From the UHGV virus genome UHGV-0178820: a DNA stretch of 16,682 nt; one strand, given 5' to 3'. Below the pieces are notes generated by a model that was given only the letters and a program-made list of their open reading frames with translations, searched no databases and was not told the origin of the DNA. This document shows positions 1,183 to 10,659 of this stretch, piece by piece. This DNA is from a virus. Each line of letters begins with the position of its first letter. The first letter of the stretch is position 1. The translations under genes and the position numbers were made by a program.

Positions 1183-1419
1183 ATGATGGTTAGAAATGAA
1201 GTAATGAACAAAGACTGGCACCGCGAGTACATCGTTGCCGCTGTGCACACCAAAGGTTTTACATTGCGTGAACTTTCTGAACGCGCTGGTCTAAAAAAAG
1301 ACTCTTTAAAAAATGCACTGTATCGCTCATGCCCTAAATATGAACGCATCATAGCCGATGCTATTGGTGTGGAACCTGCGGAGATCTGGCCAAGCCGGTA
1401 TGCCAGTAAGGCGGCGTAA
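1183..1419 (+). CDS. ner: Ner-like DNA-binding transcriptional regulator
   Basis: Small ORF immediately upstream of the transposase with TAATG stop/start overlap at 1417-1421. C-terminal ...IIADAIGVEPAEIWPSRY... resembles the Mu Ner C-terminus (recalled). Start at ATG 1183 chosen for the AAGGG SD-like motif 7 nt upstream; ATG 1204 is an alternative. Confidence 0.8.
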   Translation: MMVRNEVMNKDWHREYIVAAVHTKGFTLRELSERAGLKKDSLKNALYRSCPKYERIIADAIGVEPAEIWPSRYASKAA

Positions 1420-3461
1420 TGTTTTATTCAGCCAATGAGCTGGCCGGTCTTCCTGGTTTGCCCGGTACAGTTCAGGGGGTGCGCTGGACGCTCAATCGGA
1501 TCACAGAGACGCACCCGGAATGGAAGCGCAAGCGTGAAGGCACCAAAGCATTCGAGTATCACATCGACTGCCTGCCCGCTGAAGCGCAGAAAGTTTTACG
1601 TAAGCGCCTGACCCATCAGGTCCTGGAAGATACGCAACTGCCCGCCGTGGTTGAGCAGAAGGCAGTTAAAAACGTCGCCGTTCGCGATGAACTGGAGGTG
1701 ATGGTCAAATGCCCGGAACTGGCATTACGCGAAGTCCAGGCACTGACTGACAAGCAAAAGGCCATCGCTGATGCGCGGATATTGCTGGCTACTGAAGTGC
1801 ATAAACTGCGCGAATACGCCGGAATGACCAGGAAGGCCGCGTTAAAGCACATCGTTGATGGTGTGCGCATGGGGGCGTTACCTGACCGCATTATCGAAGC
1901 AGCTAATACTGCAAATGCACGTCAGGGAAAGCGAACCGGTGTCAGCACCGGCAGCCTGGATAGCTGGTACTCCAGCTGGGTGATGGCGCGCGGTGATGCC
2001 AATCAGTTACTGGCGTTACTGGCTCCCGGTCATCATAAGGGAACACCGTGGGAGCAGGTCTGGTGGTTGAGCGATTTCTTTATGTTCTATCGCTCATGGA
2101 AGCGCCCGACCGTTGAATATGCGTATCGTGAGTTTTCAGCCTGGTGGCATGAAAAACACGCGAATGATGCGGGAATGCTGGCAGCACTGCCTTCAGTTCA
2201 CGCAGTAAGACGGGTGTTAAGCAACGTCCCGGTGATTGTTAAAGAGCGTTTCCGCTCCACCGGTTCAGCCTGGCGTTCGCTCAATCCCTTTGTGCGGCGC
2301 GACTGGAGCACATTACCGGTTAATGCGGTATGGGTCGGGGATGGTCACTGTATGAAAATGACCGCGTTTAACCCCCTTACCGGCAACATTTTCCGACCTG
2401 AAGTGACGCTGGTTATGGATGCAGGGCAGCGCTTTGTTGTGGGCTGGTCACTGTCCCTGTCGGAGAACGTGATAGCTGTTGCTGATGCGTTGCGTTACGG
2501 CATGGCACAGCACGGGATACCGCTGATTTATTACTCCGATAACGGGGGCGGCGAAAAAAACCGGGTGCTTGATGCCGATATTACCGGGATTCTGCCCCGT
2601 CTGGGTGTGGAACATCACACGGGGATACCAGGTAATCCGCAGGGGCGCGGGGTGATTGAGAGGCTTAACAAGGAAATTCCCCGGGATGTGGCCCTGAGTT
2701 TCCGGACGTACTGCTCAAAAGGAGCAGACAAGGAAACCGTAATGATGCAGCAACGGATTATGCAGTCAGCCATTAAGGCCACCCACAAAGGGAAAGAGCT
2801 GACAAAACGGCAGGTTAAGGCAAGGGATGAAATCCCCACCTTTGAGCAACTGATGGCAGCTATAGAGCTGGAGGTCAGACGCTATAACAACCGGCCACAC
2901 AGCAGCCTTCCTCGCAAAGAGGATGGCGAATATTACAGCCCGGCAGCGTATCGCCGGAAACTGATAAAAGAGCAGAATGTTGAAATTGATTTCCTGTCGC
3001 CGGAAGAACTGCATGAAATGTTCAGGCCGGAAGTGACGCGCAAAACATTTCGCGGGGAAATTCAGTTATTCAACAATATTTATTACTCGTATGAGCTGGC
3101 CGCAGAGCACGGGAATGAAGTCAGGGTCAGTTACGATATTCATGATGCAAACAGTGTCATTGTCCGGCGGGCTGATGGCTCTTATATCTGCGATGCCATC
3201 TGGAACGGTAACAAGGTTGATGCCTTCGCTAAACCAGTTATCGAACAAAAACTGGAGAAACGCGTCAAGGGCCGCATTGCACGGGCCACGCAGAAAATCG
3301 AAGAGGCTAAACGCGAGCTTACCCCGGCTATTACGCAGAAGCCTGAGTTTAATCTGGGATATGGACTGGAACGCCAGGAGAAAAAGGAAAAAGAAGAACT
3401 TTATTTATTCGTGTCTGACCGTGAGCGCAATTTAAAGAAAAACGGCACAAATAATCGTTAA
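1419..3461 (+). CDS. A: DDE transposase, MuA-like (680 aa)
   Basis: Size and position as Mu A; candidate DDE catalytic motifs VWVGDGH, YYSDNGGGE and a downstream acidic region; basic C-terminal tail; N-terminal LPGLPGT..GV motif typical of the MuA/repressor DNA-binding domain. Confidence 0.9.
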   Translation: MFYSANELAGLPGLPGTVQGVRWTLNRITETHPEWKRKREGTKAFEYHIDCLPAEAQKVLRKRLTHQVLEDTQLPAVVEQKAVKNVAVRDELEVMVKCPELALREVQALTDKQKAIADARILLATEVHKLREYAGMTRKAALKHIVDGVRMGALPDRIIEAANTANARQGKRTGVSTGSLDSWYSSWVMARGDANQLLALLAPGHHKGTPWEQVWWLSDFFMFYRSWKRPTVEYAYREFSAWWHEKHANDAGMLAALPSVHAVRRVLSNVPVIVKERFRSTGSAWRSLNPFVRRDWSTLPVNAVWVGDGHCMKMTAFNPLTGNIFRPEVTLVMDAGQRFVVGWSLSLSENVIAVADALRYGMAQHGIPLIYYSDNGGGEKNRVLDADITGILPRLGVEHHTGIPGNPQGRGVIERLNKEIPRDVALSFRTYCSKGADKETVMMQQRIMQSAIKATHKGKELTKRQVKARDEIPTFEQLMAAIELEVRRYNNRPHSSLPRKEDGEYYSPAAYRRKLIKEQNVEIDFLSPEELHEMFRPEVTRKTFRGEIQLFNNIYYSYELAAEHGNEVRVSYDIHDANSVIVRRADGSYICDAIWNGNKVDAFAKPVIEQKLEKRVKGRIARATQKIEEAKRELTPAITQKPEFNLGYGLERQEKKEKEELYLFVSDRERNLKKNGTNNR

Positions 3462-3479: not shown

Positions 3480-4373
3480 ATGAGTTTAATTACGCAATTA
3501 AATGACGTAATGGCCCGTCGCGGCTTTACGCAGACCCACGTTGCCCGTGCTATTGGTCGTAGCAGCGCCGTTATTAACCAGTATTTGCAGGGTAAATATC
3601 AGGGCGATATGGCTGATATTGAAGAACGCATTTCTGCCTTTGTGACCCGTGAATGGGAAAAGGAAAACAACCGCCGTATTAAAGTGCGATTTGTCACCAC
3701 CGGCATGGCCGCCAAAGGGCTGGAGGTGCTGACCTACGCCCATCTGGAGTGTGATATTTGCGTGCTGTATGGCGCGGCGGGTCTGGGTAAAAGCATGATT
3801 CTGAGTGAGTATGCTGCCAGAAACCGAGATGTAGTGCTCATTGAAGCCGATATTGGCTATACGGCCAGAAAGTTACTCGATGAACTGTGCCGTCAGCTGG
3901 GTATAAAGGTTCACGGCGATATTCGCGAGAAGATTGATGCCTGTGTGCGTGAACTGCGTGGGTCAGGTCGTCTGCTGATGGTGGATGAGGCTGAACTGCT
4001 CCCCTATCGTGCACTGGAGGTATTGCGCCGTCTGCATGACAAAGCGGGTATCGGGATTGTCCTGGCGGGTATGCCTCACCTTCTGATTAACCTTAAGGGC
4101 CGTTGTGGTGAGTTCGCTCAATTATACAGCCGCGTGGCGCTGGCGCTTAACCTGGGCGATACGCTGACGCAGGAAGATTTTAACAAGATTGCCACAGACA
4201 TGATGCCGGAAGCGGCAGACCCGGAAATTGGTGAGGCACTTTACACACGTTCGCTGGGCAATGCCCGTCGTCTGTTCAAGCTGGCGCGCGGTGTGTACCG
4301 GATTTGTGATATCAGCGATGCACCGGTCAGTGTGCAGGCCATTGATAAATATTCAGAAATGTTAATTCACTGA
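3480..4373 (+). CDS. B: MuB-like AAA+ ATPase / target DNA activator
   Basis: Immediately downstream of A; N-terminal HTH-like segment (FTQTHVARAIGRSSAVINQYLQG); Walker A GAAGLGKS; Walker B-like LLMVDEAE; about 300 aa as in Mu B. Confidence 0.9.
   Translation: MSLITQLNDVMARRGFTQTHVARAIGRSSAVINQYLQGKYQGDMADIEERISAFVTREWEKENNRRIKVRFVTTGMAAKGLEVLTYAHLECDICVLYGAAGLGKSMILSEYAARNRDVVLIEADIGYTARKLLDELCRQLGIKVHGDIREKIDACVRELRGSGRLLMVDEAELLPYRALEVLRRLHDKAGIGIVLAGMPHLLINLKGRCGEFAQLYSRVALALNLGDTLTQEDFNKIATDMMPEAADPEIGEALYTRSLGNARRLFKLARGVYRICDISDAPVSVQAIDKYSEMLIH
4354..4373. repeat. 20-bp perfect direct repeat, copy 1 (CAGAAATGTTAATTCACTGA), spanning the 3' end and stop codon of B
   Basis: Identical 20-mer recurs at 4727-4746; the two copies bracket the 4387-4719 ORF. 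Confidence 0.95.
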
Positions 4374-6323: not shown

Positions 6324-6357
6324 CAGGCGTAAACCCGCCGGGGCTGGCTTACGCCTG
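6324..6357 (-). terminator. Hairpin (9-bp stem CAGGCGTAA / TTACGCCTG) acting as a probable intrinsic terminator for the leftward 6435-6653 gene
   Basis: Perfect 9-bp inverted repeat with a GC-rich 16-nt loop that may pair internally; on the minus strand it is followed by a T-rich tract (complement of 6300-6323). It lies between convergent gene ends. Confidence 0.55.
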
Positions 6358-7903: not shown

Positions 7904-8064
7904 ACCAGCAAACCAGAATAAGCGATAAGAGCCTGACCAGACTGATTGCCGATGCGGACAAGGTGCTGGAGCGGAACACTCCCGTTGCCGATGAGGAATG
8001 GTGGCAGGATTTCCGGGCCGCAATGCTGGAACTTCAGGAACGTCGTCGGGAGGAATTGAAGTGA
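7900..8064 (+). CDS. Possible small ORF (54 aa, GTG start), not in the supplied ORF track
   Basis: GTG 7900 overlaps the upstream stop (GTGA) with GAGG 8 nt upstream; open to TGA 8062-8064. Sequence VNQQTRISDKSLTRLIADADKVLERNTPVADEEWWQDFRAAMLELQERRREELK translated by hand. Confidence 0.35.
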   Translation: MNQQTRISDKSLTRLIADADKVLERNTPVADEEWWQDFRAAMLELQERRREELK

Positions 8065-8153
8065 GTGAATTAAAGTGTCGAATTAATGGCAATCAGATAG
8101 AACCGTGTGCGGTACTGGCAAAAGCACCCGAATATGGAAAAAGGAGGCAACCA

Positions 8154-8651
8154 GTGAGCGAGATTAACTATCAGGCACTGCGTGAGGTGGCAGTGGCCGC
8201 GAAGGGGGATACGACGTGGCAGAACCTACAGGCTTTTCATGCTGCTGCTACGCCGGAGGTTGTGCAGGCGTTGCTGGATGAAAACGAAAGACTGTGTCGC
8301 GATCTGATAGCTCGTAATGGTGAGATTGAAGGGCTTCTGGAGTGGGCAGAAGAACTGGAGGCACGGGAGGTAGCTTTGCCAGTAGCGTCATTCATTGTTG
8401 AAGATGGATGCATGCGTGTTGATGGGTTCAGTAAGTATGTAGGTCACTCGCTACCTGATGGAATGCATGAGCTTTATGCTGCCCCGCCAGCATCGGTAGT
8501 ACCGGAAGGACTAGTTAAAGCAGTGCGTTTCTATGAACAGGTAAAGTGTGAGAATCCGCCAGTCGAAACCGGAGCATGGAAAGACGCGGTTGACTGGGTG
8601 CTCAACGAGGCTTGTCAGGCTGTAAATATTGACGCCAAAGGAGGTGCGTAA
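8154..8651 (+). CDS. Ead/Ea22-like family protein (about 165 aa from GTG 8154; alternative GTG start at 8061)
   Basis: Segment (M/V)SEINYQALREVAVAAKGD...ATPEVVQALLDENERL matches the recalled hallmark N-terminus of lambdoid-phage Ead/Ea22-like proteins. AAAGGAGG SD 6 nt upstream of GTG 8154; GTG 8061 also has GGGAGG upstream and would add 31 residues. Confidence 0.6.
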   Translation: MSEINYQALREVAVAAKGDTTWQNLQAFHAAATPEVVQALLDENERLCRDLIARNGEIEGLLEWAEELEAREVALPVASFIVEDGCMRVDGFSKYVGHSLPDGMHELYAAPPASVVPEGLVKAVRFYEQVKCENPPVETGAWKDAVDWVLNEACQAVNIDAKGGA

Positions 8652-8821
8652 TGCGTGCCGCGTTTATCGGTTTATTACCGTACCCGACTCGTTTTTGGGC
8701 TTCTGCGCTAATTGCAAAGCCGCATACCCTTATGGCTGACAGCATCATCCCGGCACCAAAGCGCCATACCGGTATTGCAGCTGCACGACGCGAAGCAAAG
8801 AAACGCAGGAGAGCAAAATGA
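8651..8821 (+). CDS. Possible small protein (56 aa; hydrophobic N-terminus, basic C-terminus), not in the ORF track
   Basis: TAATG overlap with the Ea22-like gene stop; AAAGGAGG SD 6 nt upstream; hand translation MRAAFIGLLPYPTRFWASALIAKPHTLMADSIIPAPKRHTGIAAARREAKKRRRAK. Confidence 0.4.
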   Translation: MRAAFIGLLPYPTRFWASALIAKPHTLMADSIIPAPKRHTGIAAARREAKKRRRAK

Positions 8822-9003
8822 TGAAAAACCGTAAGGCAAAAATTCTGTTAGCTCGCAGAAACGGCTTTGATGTCTGGCGGTGGGTGAGGATTAGTAACAG
8901 GCGAGTAAGGTTGACGGGGTGTTGCGGGGTGATGGGGCACAGTTGTTGCAAAAAGCCCAGCGCGGCGCAAAACCGCTGGAAGAATCACACTAACGCAAAG
9001 TGA
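8818..9003 (+). CDS. Possible small basic Cys-rich protein (61 aa; CC...CC motif)
   Basis: ATGA overlap with the upstream small ORF; AGGAGA SD 6 nt upstream; very basic with CCGVMGHSCC. Confidence 0.4.
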   Translation: MMKNRKAKILLARRNGFDVWRWVRISNRRVRLTGCCGVMGHSCCKKPSAAQNRWKNHTNAK

Positions 9004-9021
9004 TTAAATAATAACCAATAG

Positions 9022-9068
9022 CAGGCCAAAACATACGTTTTGGTCTGCCAAAAGTAGTGTTTTGGTCA
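9022..9068. promoter_or_regulatory. Two tandem palindromic units (GCCAAAAC-ATAC-GTTTTGGTC and GCCAAAAG-TAGTG-TTTTGGTC); candidate operator or RNA structure
   Basis: Each roughly 22-bp unit is itself an inverted repeat (CCAAAA...TTTTGG) and the two are direct repeats of each other; located in the intergenic gap just upstream of the 9071 gene. Confidence 0.5.
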
Positions 9069-9070
9069 TT

Positions 9071-9349
9071 ATGAAGATTGAACAAGTCGGAATGGCAGCT
9101 TTCAGGCAACAGGCTGAAAGCGGTGGCGTGGATGAGTTCGTCGTGCAGCGGTTCGGTGGTGTGTATCACCTCTTCGCTGTGAATCGCCGCGCCGGGGTGT
9201 CCTATTTTCTACAGGAACGCCGTGGCGATTACAAGACGTGGCTGTCTCTTGACCGTGCCGCCGCGTTCCTGTCGGGGATTGGTGTTTCACGTTTTACCGT
9301 GCGTTTTGAGGATAACAAACATGCTGAAAAAGATGATCGGGGCCATTAA
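9071..9349 (+). CDS. Hypothetical protein (about 92 aa) immediately upstream of and overlapping gemA
   Basis: ORF in frame with track ORF 9062-9349; weak RBS; start uncertain (9062 TTG, 9071 ATG or 9092 ATG). Overlaps gemA by 29 nt in a different frame. Confidence 0.45.
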   Translation: MKIEQVGMAAFRQQAESGGVDEFVVQRFGGVYHLFAVNRRAGVSYFLQERRGDYKTWLSLDRAAAFLSGIGVSRFTVRFEDNKHAEKDDRGH

Positions 9350-9734
9350 AGCCGGTCAGGCATATCTGGGGTGGGATGATGCTCTTTATCGCCAGACACT
9401 GGCCCGCCTGACAGGTAAAACCAGCACCACACGCTGCAACCTCGATGAACTGCGCATCATCCGGGAATACATGCACGAACAGGGATTTCCGCGTAAAGCC
9501 CCCGCCGGTAAAGGTCGCCGCCCCCGTGTGGCAATGAGCAGAAAATCGGTATTATCCAAAATTGAAGCGTTGCTGGCTGATGCCGGTCGTTCCTGGGCAT
9601 ATGCGGAAGGACTGGCATCTCACATGTATAAGCAACATGTGATCGAATGGCTGACAGATGATCAACTGTTCGGGGTGATGGTGGCGCTGACAAAAGACGC
9701 CAGAAAACGAGCCAGAGCAGCACGTAAACAATAA
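9321..9734 (+). CDS. gemA: GemA-like protein (Mu gp16 family, DUF1018)
   Basis: Pattern ...LGWDDALYRQTLARLTGKTSTTRCNLDELRIIREYMHEQGF... matches the recalled GemA signature; GAGGA upstream of ATG 9321; position just before the late activator as in Mu. Confidence 0.75.
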   Translation: MLKKMIGAIKAGQAYLGWDDALYRQTLARLTGKTSTTRCNLDELRIIREYMHEQGFPRKAPAGKGRRPRVAMSRKSVLSKIEALLADAGRSWAYAEGLASHMYKQHVIEWLTDDQLFGVMVALTKDARKRARAARKQ

Positions 9735-9741
9735 AGAATCA

Positions 9742-9766
9742 GCCCCTGCCTTGCAGGGGCTTTTTT
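9742..9766 (+). terminator. Rho-independent terminator after gemA
   Basis: GCCCCTG (9742-9748) / CAGGGGC (9754-9760) stem with 5-nt loop followed by TTTTTT (9761-9766). Confidence 0.8.
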
Positions 9767-9771
9767 GTGGT

Positions 9772-9800
9772 CTGTACAGGCGATCATGTATGGCTATAAT
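9772..9800 (+). promoter_or_regulatory. Candidate sigma70-type promoter for the Mor/C-family gene (-35-like TGTACA, consensus -10 TATAAT at 9795-9800)
   Basis: TATAAT hexamer 30 nt upstream of the ATG with a 4/6 -35 match 17 bp upstream; directly follows the gemA terminator. Confidence 0.5.
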
Positions 9801-9829: not shown

Positions 9830-10297
9830 ATGCAGACCTTCAGTGAAACAGATCTTCGCGATGCGCAGGCACTGCTGCCCGATTCCGTGCAGCAACTGAT
9901 TAGCGTGATTGGCTTCCCCGCCCTGACCCGGTTAATCCGTTCTTTTGGTGGCGTGACGTTAAGCGGTAAAACCGGCGCACACGCAGGACGCACCGGCGGT
10001 GTCCATGCCCTGTTACATGACGTGCTGACCGAAGACGAAATCAACAAACTGATCCGCTTTCTTGGCGGTGCACCGTTTTACATTCCCCGTTGTGATCATG
10101 CTTTACGTGCCCTGCGTAACACCCGTTTTATGGCTGATTTACAGCAGCATGTAAAAGGCGGATGCTCACACCGGCAGGCGCTGGCACTGCTCTGTCCCCG
10201 TTACGGCATTTCAGACCGGTACGCATGGCAACTGATACACCGACGACAAAAACAGACTTCGCTGAAAAGCCCCACCCAGGTGGGGCTTTTTGATTAA
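9830..10297 (+). CDS. Mor/C-family transcriptional activator (middle/late gene activator homologue)
   Basis: C-terminal region FYIPRCDHALRALRN.....GCSHRQALALLCPRYGISDRYAWQLIHR matches the recalled Mu Mor/C pattern (YIPR......R..R, then HTH). Located between gemA and the lysis genes. Confidence 0.75.
   Translation: MQTFSETDLRDAQALLPDSVQQLISVIGFPALTRLIRSFGGVTLSGKTGAHAGRTGGVHALLHDVLTEDEINKLIRFLGGAPFYIPRCDHALRALRNTRFMADLQQHVKGGCSHRQALALLCPRYGISDRYAWQLIHRRQKQTSLKSPTQVGLFD
10268..10291 (+). terminator. Rho-independent terminator overlapping the 3' end of the Mor/C-family gene
   Basis: AGCCCCAC / GTGGGGCT stem followed by TTTTT; the stop codon (10295-10297) lies just after the T-tract, so the hairpin is encoded within the last codons. 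Confidence 0.7.
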
Positions 10298-10630: not shown

Positions 10631-10659
10631 CTGCCGGGGGTGCTGAACACCCCCAGCAG
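10631..10659 (+). promoter_or_regulatory. GC-rich hairpin/palindrome (GGGGGTG-CTGAA-CACCCCC, extendable to about 11 bp with one mismatch) in the leader upstream of the lysis cassette
   Basis: Inverted repeat without a following T-tract, within a 187-bp intergenic region that has no convincing -35/-10 pair; candidate activator-dependent late promoter element or RNA structure. Confidence 0.4.

Follow-up and report, generated by a model that had tools for sequence, protein, structure and literature searches.

What is the function of the two tandem palindromes that separate the accessory early genes from the gemA region in the virus genome UHGV-0178820? We studied this locus in a stretch of 16,682 nucleotides (nt) of that genome, hereafter the window, which covers the left-hand third of a transposable, Mu-like prophage from Enterobacteriaceae. 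An earlier note had described the palindromes as tandem sites for a dimeric regulator, or alternatively as two adjacent RNA hairpins, that could gate transcription into the middle genes. The comparison of related loci indicates that these dyads (9021-9067) are a real, selected, and lineage-specific cis-element serving a gene that encodes a protein of 92 amino acids (aa) and starts immediately downstream; most likely, they constitute its private expression-control element. Both proposed forms, a DNA site bound by a dimer and a pair of RNA hairpins, are compatible with the evidence, and the sequence alone leaves the choice between them undecided. We tentatively favour a structured leader in the early mRNA, where the dyads would mask the ribosome-binding region of the 92-aa gene, whose start region lacks a Shine-Dalgarno (SD) sequence.

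The tandem dyads are genuine. Positions 9025-9045 read GCCAAAACATACGTTTTGGTC and positions 9047-9067 read GCCAAAAGTAGTGTTTTGGTC, so that the two units are direct repeats of one another (76% identity, 22-nt spacing) as well as mutually inverted repeats. The motif CCAAAA-N4-8-TTTTGG is observed twice in the 16.7-kb window, for an expectation of 0.01, and none of 200 shuffles produced two occurrences. Together, the units form four arms where CCAAAA and TTTTGG alternate with a 22-bp period, the half-sites starting at 9026, 9038, 9048, and 9060. Both dyads share the geometry CCAAAA-N6-TTTTGG, and their centres are 22 bp apart.

The positions given in the earlier note were correct, but the first dyad is longer than described. 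It is a 28-nt palindrome on the plus strand (9021-9048), GCAGGCCAAAAC-ATAC-GTTTTGGTCTGC, whose outward extension, GCAG(G)CCAAAAC-ATAC-GTTTTGGTCTGC, results in a 12-bp stem with one G.T pair. Folded as RNA, this hairpin of arms 1 and 2 has a free energy of -17.8 kcal/mol (z-score -7.5). Its stem is perfect in most relatives, including the prophage inserted in eutC of the enteropathogenic Escherichia coli (EPEC) strain E2348/69, a close relative where it is among the six perfect palindromes of at least 9 bp present in 35.8 kb. The second dyad (arms 3 and 4; plus strand, 9047-9067), GCCAAAAG-TAGT-GTTTTGGTC, overlaps the first by 2 nt and has a predicted stability of -5.9 kcal/mol. Its last arm spans 9060-9067 and ends 3 nt short of the ATG at 9071. 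The element thus fills the 67-nt gap between the stop codon of the upstream open reading frame (ORF), at 9001-9003, and the start of the 92-aa gene (plus strand, 9071-9349; phrog_7844). The latter precedes gemA (plus strand, 9321-9734; PF06252, E-value 1.7e-18), with which it overlaps by 29 nt. Hence, the dyads do lie before the gemA region, as first proposed, but they abut the start codon of the 92-aa gene and are not directly upstream of gemA itself.

To study the conservation of the element, we gathered loci of the 92-aa gene from E. coli genomes (L001-L003), IMG/VR (L006-L025), and metagenomes (L259-L264), and added divergent enterobacterial loci (L004, L005, L023, L024, L149-L153, L269, L270). 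Both dyads are present in all 28 intact close relatives (22 haplotypes), which is the conservation in related prophages on which the earlier note had made its proposal depend. Among the 22 haplotypes, 4 of the 35 stem columns and 7 of the 10 loop columns are variable, compared with 50 of the 92 third codon positions and 8 of the 92 second codon positions of the gene. The four variable stem columns are either terminal pairs or an A/G difference at 9025. The arms of the second dyad are invariant, whereas positions 1-4 of its loop vary. The first loop is found as ATAC, ATAT, GTAT, or ATGT, and the second as GTAGTG, GTGATG, GCAATG, GCGATG, GTAATG, or ATGATG. Since the arms vary like second codon positions and the loops like synonymous sites, the arms are under purifying selection while the loops drift.

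This pattern bears on the least probable of the explanations that we considered, namely that the dyads are a recombination joint or an evolutionary relic at a junction where cassettes are swapped, with no regulatory role. The earlier note had rightly placed them at a boundary: they are located where a mosaic border separates the gemA module from the accessory early genes. At least three contexts (A, B, and C) differ by the upstream gene, with 67, 80, and 154 nt between its stop codon and the ATG, such that at least three unrelated modules adjoin the same element. In the window, the 3' part of an Ea22-like gene and the two small ORFs that follow it (8651-8821 and 8818-9003; whole span 8636-9004) are 78-91% identical to segments of lambdoid phages (phiV10, Shiga toxin phages) and of P1-type phages, and this homology stops at or before 9004, just short of the dyads. 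By these similarities, the segment is a cassette exchanged between unrelated types of phages. However, a relic would be expected to decay uniformly, which is not the pattern of conserved arms and drifting loops described above. Furthermore, the junction is not within the palindrome: similarity between contexts starts only about 25 nt before the first dyad, in an A/T-rich flank at the mosaic junction (plus strand, 8996-9020) whose consensus, ..TTG-N3-AAA-N3-TAATCAA-NN-, is partly conserved across upstream contexts.

Which gene does the element accompany? All close homologues of the 92-aa gene have it upstream, always in the same orientation and in spite of the different upstream genes, and homologues of 56-77% identity, in Intestinirhabdus, Leminorella, and others, are preceded by a weakened version. 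In Leminorella and in L023, the homologue and gemA have other genes between them, yet the units remain before the homologue. Conversely, Mu-like phages of Klebsiella and Pseudomonas that have gemA and lack the 92-aa gene have tightly packed genes and no dyads. Distant homologues that overlap their upstream gene also lack such an element, and this overlap suggests translational coupling. The element and the 92-aa gene occur in 58 of the 5426 complete E. coli genomes, at a median of one place, and always together. The comparison thus indicates that the partner of the element is the 92-aa gene, and neither gemA nor mor, the gene of the Mor-family activator further downstream.

Some of these loci have features of their own. 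The genes between the 92-aa homologue and gemA in the Leminorella-type relatives are an HNH_3 endonuclease gene and a gene of 76 aa (3491-4078 in L023 and 2992-3576 in L149). The 92-aa gene is frameshifted in L152 and L153, which are decaying prophages, and in L153 it is fused to gemA (144-aa product), with a deletion of 1 nt in the first loop at the locus.

The search for further copies, which the earlier note had suggested, was thus fruitful in related prophages, before homologues of the 92-aa gene, and gave nothing elsewhere in the same prophage. There is one copy per prophage: neither the window nor the complete E2348/69 prophage has another. When three mismatches were allowed, the sole other match of the window to GACCAAAA-N6-TTTTGGTC was the A/T-run terminator of the repressor gene (169-190). 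Most matches of the IMG/VR scans, run with the patterns CCAAAA..TTTTGG..CCAAAA and GACCAAAA..TTTTGGTC, were chance occurrences in unrelated phages, and the true relatives all belonged to the same prophage lineage. A dispersed repeat, such as repetitive extragenic palindromes (REP), bacterial interspersed mosaic elements, or elements resembling miniature inverted-repeat transposable elements, can be rejected given the single copy per prophage and the 58 of 5426 genomes. The scans also revealed unrelated repeats. An 82-kb phage contig of high GC, IMGVR_UViG_3300035661_000038 (L160, L162, L174, L182, L187), has at least nine scattered perfect 22-bp palindromes, GACCAAAAAGCGCCTTTTGGTC or its GGCGCT variant, which resemble a repeated operator or terminator-type motif. 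Two other IMG/VR loci, L069 and L138, show tandem dyads of the form CCAAAAGAAATCTTTTGG-N8-CCAAAACGGTCGTTTTGG in an unrelated context, inside longer GAGAGCCGAGAGC-rich repeats; L138 has two copies, 3 kb apart.

Do the dyads gate transcription into the middle genes? This seems unlikely. The element follows the 92-aa gene, not gemA or mor, and no conserved promoter accompanies it. Moreover, gemA and mor are separated by a canonical intrinsic terminator and a promoter-like site, both of which lie outside the element and provide context only. The terminator (plus strand, 9741-9761), directly 3' of gemA, reads AGCCCCTGC-CTT-GCAGGGGCT followed by TTTTTTG and has a d'Aubenton-Carafa-type score of +37.9. 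The sigma-70-like promoter candidate (plus strand, 9773-9800), TGTACA-16-TATAAT, has 10 of 12 matches and is the best of the window. Consequently, the early operon appears to end after gemA, and in this lineage mor appears, from these predicted signals, to be a separate transcription unit with its own entry point. This is unlike Mu, where one transcript covers gemA and mor and the early terminator comes after mor.

Four arguments lead us to favour a structured RNA leader, even if we give it somewhat less than even chances. The element is located about 8 kb inside the early operon, and it lacks its own promoter. Its orientation and its position both relate to a start codon devoid of an SD sequence, where local structure should dominate initiation. 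Finally, it vanishes where the gene is translationally coupled to its neighbour. The four arms would then form the leader of the 92-aa gene within a long early transcript. In the nascent RNA, arms 1 and 2 would quickly form the very stable 12-bp hairpin, which would lock arm 2 and leave arm 3 free for arm 4. The weaker hairpin of arms 3 and 4 would cover positions -24 to -4 relative to the start codon and throttle the entry of ribosomes on the 92-aa gene, and indirectly affect gemA through the 29-nt overlap. If the first hairpin were opened, arm 2 could capture arm 3 and free the start region. The first hairpin might also act as a barrier to decay and give the distal segment, comprising the 92-aa gene and gemA, a stability of its own. 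The action as RNA, the lowered translation, and any switching are what we infer here, as opposed to what we observed.

The predicted folds provide the elements of such a leader. As arms 1 and 3 are alike, and so are arms 2 and 4, three further pairings are possible in addition to the two hairpins. Pairings 1:2, 2:3, and 3:4 are all predicted, and the plus strand of 9015-9095 folds at -23.8 kcal/mol (z-score -3.6). The alternative pairing of arms 2 and 3 (plus strand, 9037-9054; TTTTGG-TCTG-CCAAAA) amounts to -3.9 kcal/mol. As in leaders that mask a ribosome-binding site, the 3' arm lies over the ribosome-binding region, and alternative upstream pairings are predicted. Several of the observed changes preserve pairing: a C-G pair becomes A-U at the innermost position in E2348/69, A-U becomes U-A in L023 and L024, A-U becomes G.U at 9025 (a change also found in L004), a C in arm 3 becomes U to give G.U in L149, and L269 has a register-shifted hairpin, ACCGU/AUGGU. 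These changes are not decisive, since symmetric changes are also expected in a palindrome bound by a protein.

Several observations fit a leader poorly. The arms and the geometry are identical in both dyads and free of insertions and deletions down to about 60% identity, and such rigid spacing is more typical of DNA sites bound by proteins. The sequences of the arms outlast the stability of the hairpins in distant relatives. The mismatches in the stems give no signal for a strand: two form G.U on the plus strand, another two do so only on the minus strand, and the last one on neither. The second hairpin is marginal (-5.9 kcal/mol) although its arms are invariant. A search of the whole window against the RNA families of Rfam 15, among them phage antitermination RNAs, had no match at the gathering threshold, and the best local match (E-value up to 10), a spurious one to a plastid family, reached 17 bits for a cutoff of 55.8. 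Finally, covariation supports the two-hairpin structure no better than a long hairpin, with 84.5% of paired positions for the former and 87.3% for the latter.

This long hairpin results from the pairing of arm 1 with arm 4 and of arm 2 with arm 3 (9024-9067, 44 nt, about 19-20 bp with a small internal loop, -19.1 kcal/mol). It suggests a different role, which we regard as quite unlikely: the long hairpin would be a predicted RNase III-type site, or the first hairpin a barrier to exonucleases or RNase E. In either case, the accessory-gene segment and the 92-aa/gemA segment would differ in stability independently of each other, as with intercistronic sites in T7 or REP sequences in stabilised operons. 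The RNAalifold consensus has the long-hairpin topology, which is also the minimum-energy fold of 9024-9067 and of L003, L004, and L151. The loops are partly complementary (CAU with AUG or GUG), and extensively so in L151 (UUAUAUU with AAUAUAA), and the intercistronic position at a module boundary would suit a processing site. However, the two-hairpin fold becomes more stable (-23.8 kcal/mol) once the GCAG/CTGC flanks are included, and the statistics of paired positions show no preference for the long hairpin. This explanation also overlaps with that of a leader, of which it is partly a sub-case.

Intrinsic termination on the plus strand can be rejected, since the tail CAAAAGUAGUG gives a score of -54, compared with the +37.9 of the terminator downstream of gemA, which served as control. 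A minus-strand or bidirectional intrinsic terminator, an insulator that would stop antisense transcription into the accessory genes, is very unlikely. A consensus scan does flag it in E2348/69 (14 pairs, tail TTGGTTATTA), and the 25 nt that follow the first hairpin on the minus strand form a U-rich tract that the contexts share in part. Yet, the scores range from -11 to -37 in contexts A, B, and C, the stem on the minus strand of the window has a C.A mismatch, and the second dyad is left with no explanation. There is neither a convincing minus-strand promoter downstream nor a minus-strand gene that needs termination. The idea of an antisense RNA was abandoned because the scan for minus-strand promoters gave nothing above background.

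The main competitor of the RNA leader is a tandem operator in the DNA, which is possible but, in our view, on the unlikely side. Here, a sequence-specific protein would occupy four half-sites on one face of the helix, either as two dimers or as a single tetramer. The simplest candidate would be the 92-aa protein, as an autoregulator; otherwise, the binder would be another factor of phage or host origin. Once bound, the protein would repress a weak promoter nearby, or stand in the way of RNA polymerase elongating from the early promoter. The identical arms, the N6 geometry, and the 22-bp spacing of the centres, i.e., whole helical turns, are better explained by an operator than by an RNA leader. 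The same applies to the distant relatives. The spacers that vary freely between invariant arms also speak for an operator. The four arms align with no insertion or deletion from E. coli to relatives of about 60% identity, whereas the distance from arm 4 to the ATG varies between 2 and 10 nt. The sequences of the arms are kept, as ACCAAA(A/T/G) and (T/A)TTGG or ATGG, while the palindromy decays and the hairpins lose stability (-9 to -14 kcal/mol over 75 nt). The second dyad is down to 3 bp in L004 and L151, L149 and L270 have other weak pairings in place of the first, and in L023 and L149 the first dyad is within the 3' end of the upstream ORF. A promoter-like sequence, ATCACA-17-AATAAT (8984-9012), is found just upstream in context A, and the gem operon of Mu is reported, in a secondary mention of the original work, to be constitutive in lysogens (Paolozzi & Ghelardini 1992, cited in PMC3820752).

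Against an operator, the sigma-70 promoter is not conserved. Position weight matrix scores are 8.2 in context A, 6.2 in B, and 4.9 in C, for a 90th percentile of the background of 7.5, and distant relatives have none above background. Hence, it is not obvious what a DNA operator would regulate here. The whole prophage has a single such site, and the 92-aa protein has no helix-turn-helix (HTH) or ribbon-helix-helix (RHH) fold. The GCAG/CTGC extension produces the 28-bp palindrome but spoils half-site 3 (TGCC instead of GACC), which looks like selection for the first stem itself. The binders proposed in the earlier note, i.e., Ner, the repressor, or a Mor/C-family protein, are not supported, since they have different palindromes of their own (1063-1164 and 10634-10656) with no CCAAAA dyad among them. 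The motifs of the operator region are CTTTCTTTTC/GAAAAGAAAG and GGATAACAC/GTGTTATCC (palindromes within 1063-1164), and that of the late promoter, before the lysis genes, is GGGGGTG-N5-CACCCCC. As the operator, left-end, and late-promoter motifs all differ from the dyads, we rejected the latter as probable sites of the repressor/Ner, the transposase, or Mor/C.

The RNA and DNA forms meet in a further proposal, which we consider unlikely: the 92-aa protein would bind its own four-arm leader, as RNA or as duplex DNA, and thereby autoregulate itself and GemA. The protein has no Pfam family. Several members of its family have weak full-length matches to the NCBIfam ParC family (E-values 0.003-0.07, far below the cutoff), a "partition-associated" protein of IncP-9 plasmids that is dispensable for plasmid stability in NAH7 (PMC12421886). 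The fold is alpha/beta and eL38-like, the best fold matches being the ribosomal protein eL38 and the FtsH N-domain, and the fold search revealed no HTH, RHH, or other DNA-binding fold. If autoregulation were true, it would define a new small family of nucleic acid-binding proteins with its cognate site, and offer a first molecular entry point to the plasmid ParC proteins, which are uncharacterised.

Two further explanations of the region before the gene were rejected. Some records (P0001, P0002) annotate a protein of 104 aa that starts at an ATG within the first loop. This in-frame ATG is missing in the window (ACG), in L002, and in L003, the changes in the loop would be non-synonymous, and distant homologues all begin with MK..E..VGM. 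The 92-aa gene is thus often called from an ATG inside the palindrome, an annotation error that can now be corrected. Coupling by ribosomes that finish the upstream ORF was discarded as a general mechanism because the stop-to-ATG distance varies between 15 and 154 nt. No leader ORF is conserved, and the position of the upstream stop is variable.

The other features of the window are as follows. Near the left end, at 73-212, there are three copies of the repeat TTCTGGGCG(G/C), which are probably end-binding sites of the transposase, and overlapping terminator-like A/T-run hairpins are located downstream of the repressor gene (169-206). The repressor (minus strand, 367-1029) is followed by a Ner-like gene (1147-1419), the transposase (1419-3461), a MuB-like ATPase (3480-4373), and a run of small accessory early genes that includes the Ead/Ea22 cassette (7998-8651). 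A second intergenic hairpin of the early operon, CAGGCGTAAACCCGCC / GGCTGGCTTACGCCTG, is found after an ORF of 63 aa (6324-6357), and in the compact relative L151 its homologue (about 2410-2445) is directly upstream of the dyad units. Downstream of gemA come the Mor-family activator (9830-10297) and then the lysis and head genes. A bidirectional terminator-like palindrome, AAAAGCCCCACC/GGTGGGGCTTTT (10265-10290), overlaps the 3' end of mor, and the dyad CCGGGGGTG-CTGAA-CACCCCCAG (10634-10656), upstream of the lysis genes, is likely a site for a Mor/C-type activator. The exact sequence of the window is in no complete E. coli genome, and the best E. coli match of 8600-9500 has about 94% identity over 96% of the stretch.

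The prophage lineage is present in about 1% of the complete E. coli genomes, including that of EPEC E2348/69, and a conserved control element next to a companion gene of gemA marks a regulated step in its transition from early to middle genes. The feature is in itself of an ordinary kind, a leader hairpin or an operator, and it makes a compact case for telling RNA readings from DNA readings. Our search of the literature on the dyad sequence and on the regulation of the gem region found nothing specific.

How does the element compare with known systems? Phage Mu itself cannot serve as a model, since it has an unrelated GC-rich hairpin and a minus-strand gene before gemA. Like the operators OR1-OR2 of lambda, the Ner sites of Mu, and the Mnt/Arc sites of P22, the dyads are two palindromes that share half-sites, lie whole helical turns apart, and combine conserved arms with freely varying spacers. 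They differ from them by the lack of a conserved promoter, of a known binder, and of a further genomic copy, and by their location about 8 kb inside an operon, abutting a start codon. They resemble the RNase III sites of T7 and REP-like stabilisers in that a stem-loop, or a duplex of about 20 bp interrupted by an internal loop, is placed between two genes of a long early transcript of a phage. Yet, the element is single-copy, does not belong to a repeated family, and has no sequence similarity to them. In the Mu family, the com-mom region has a stem-loop over the start region of a gene that is thereby kept translationally silent. The gene, the position, and the sequence differ from those studied here, where no Com-like zinc-finger activator was identified. 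Finally, the four-segment leaders that mask a ribosome-binding site, such as the translational attenuation or coupling leader of ermC and the structure-mediated coupling of the rpmI-rplT operon, share with the dyads the pairings 1:2 and 3:4, or alternatively 2:3, and the last segment placed on the ribosome-binding region. In contrast with these leaders, the dyad element has no leader peptide or stalling site, the upstream stop is 15-154 nt away, and the first hairpin is far stronger than the 2:3 pairing, which makes spontaneous switching unlikely.
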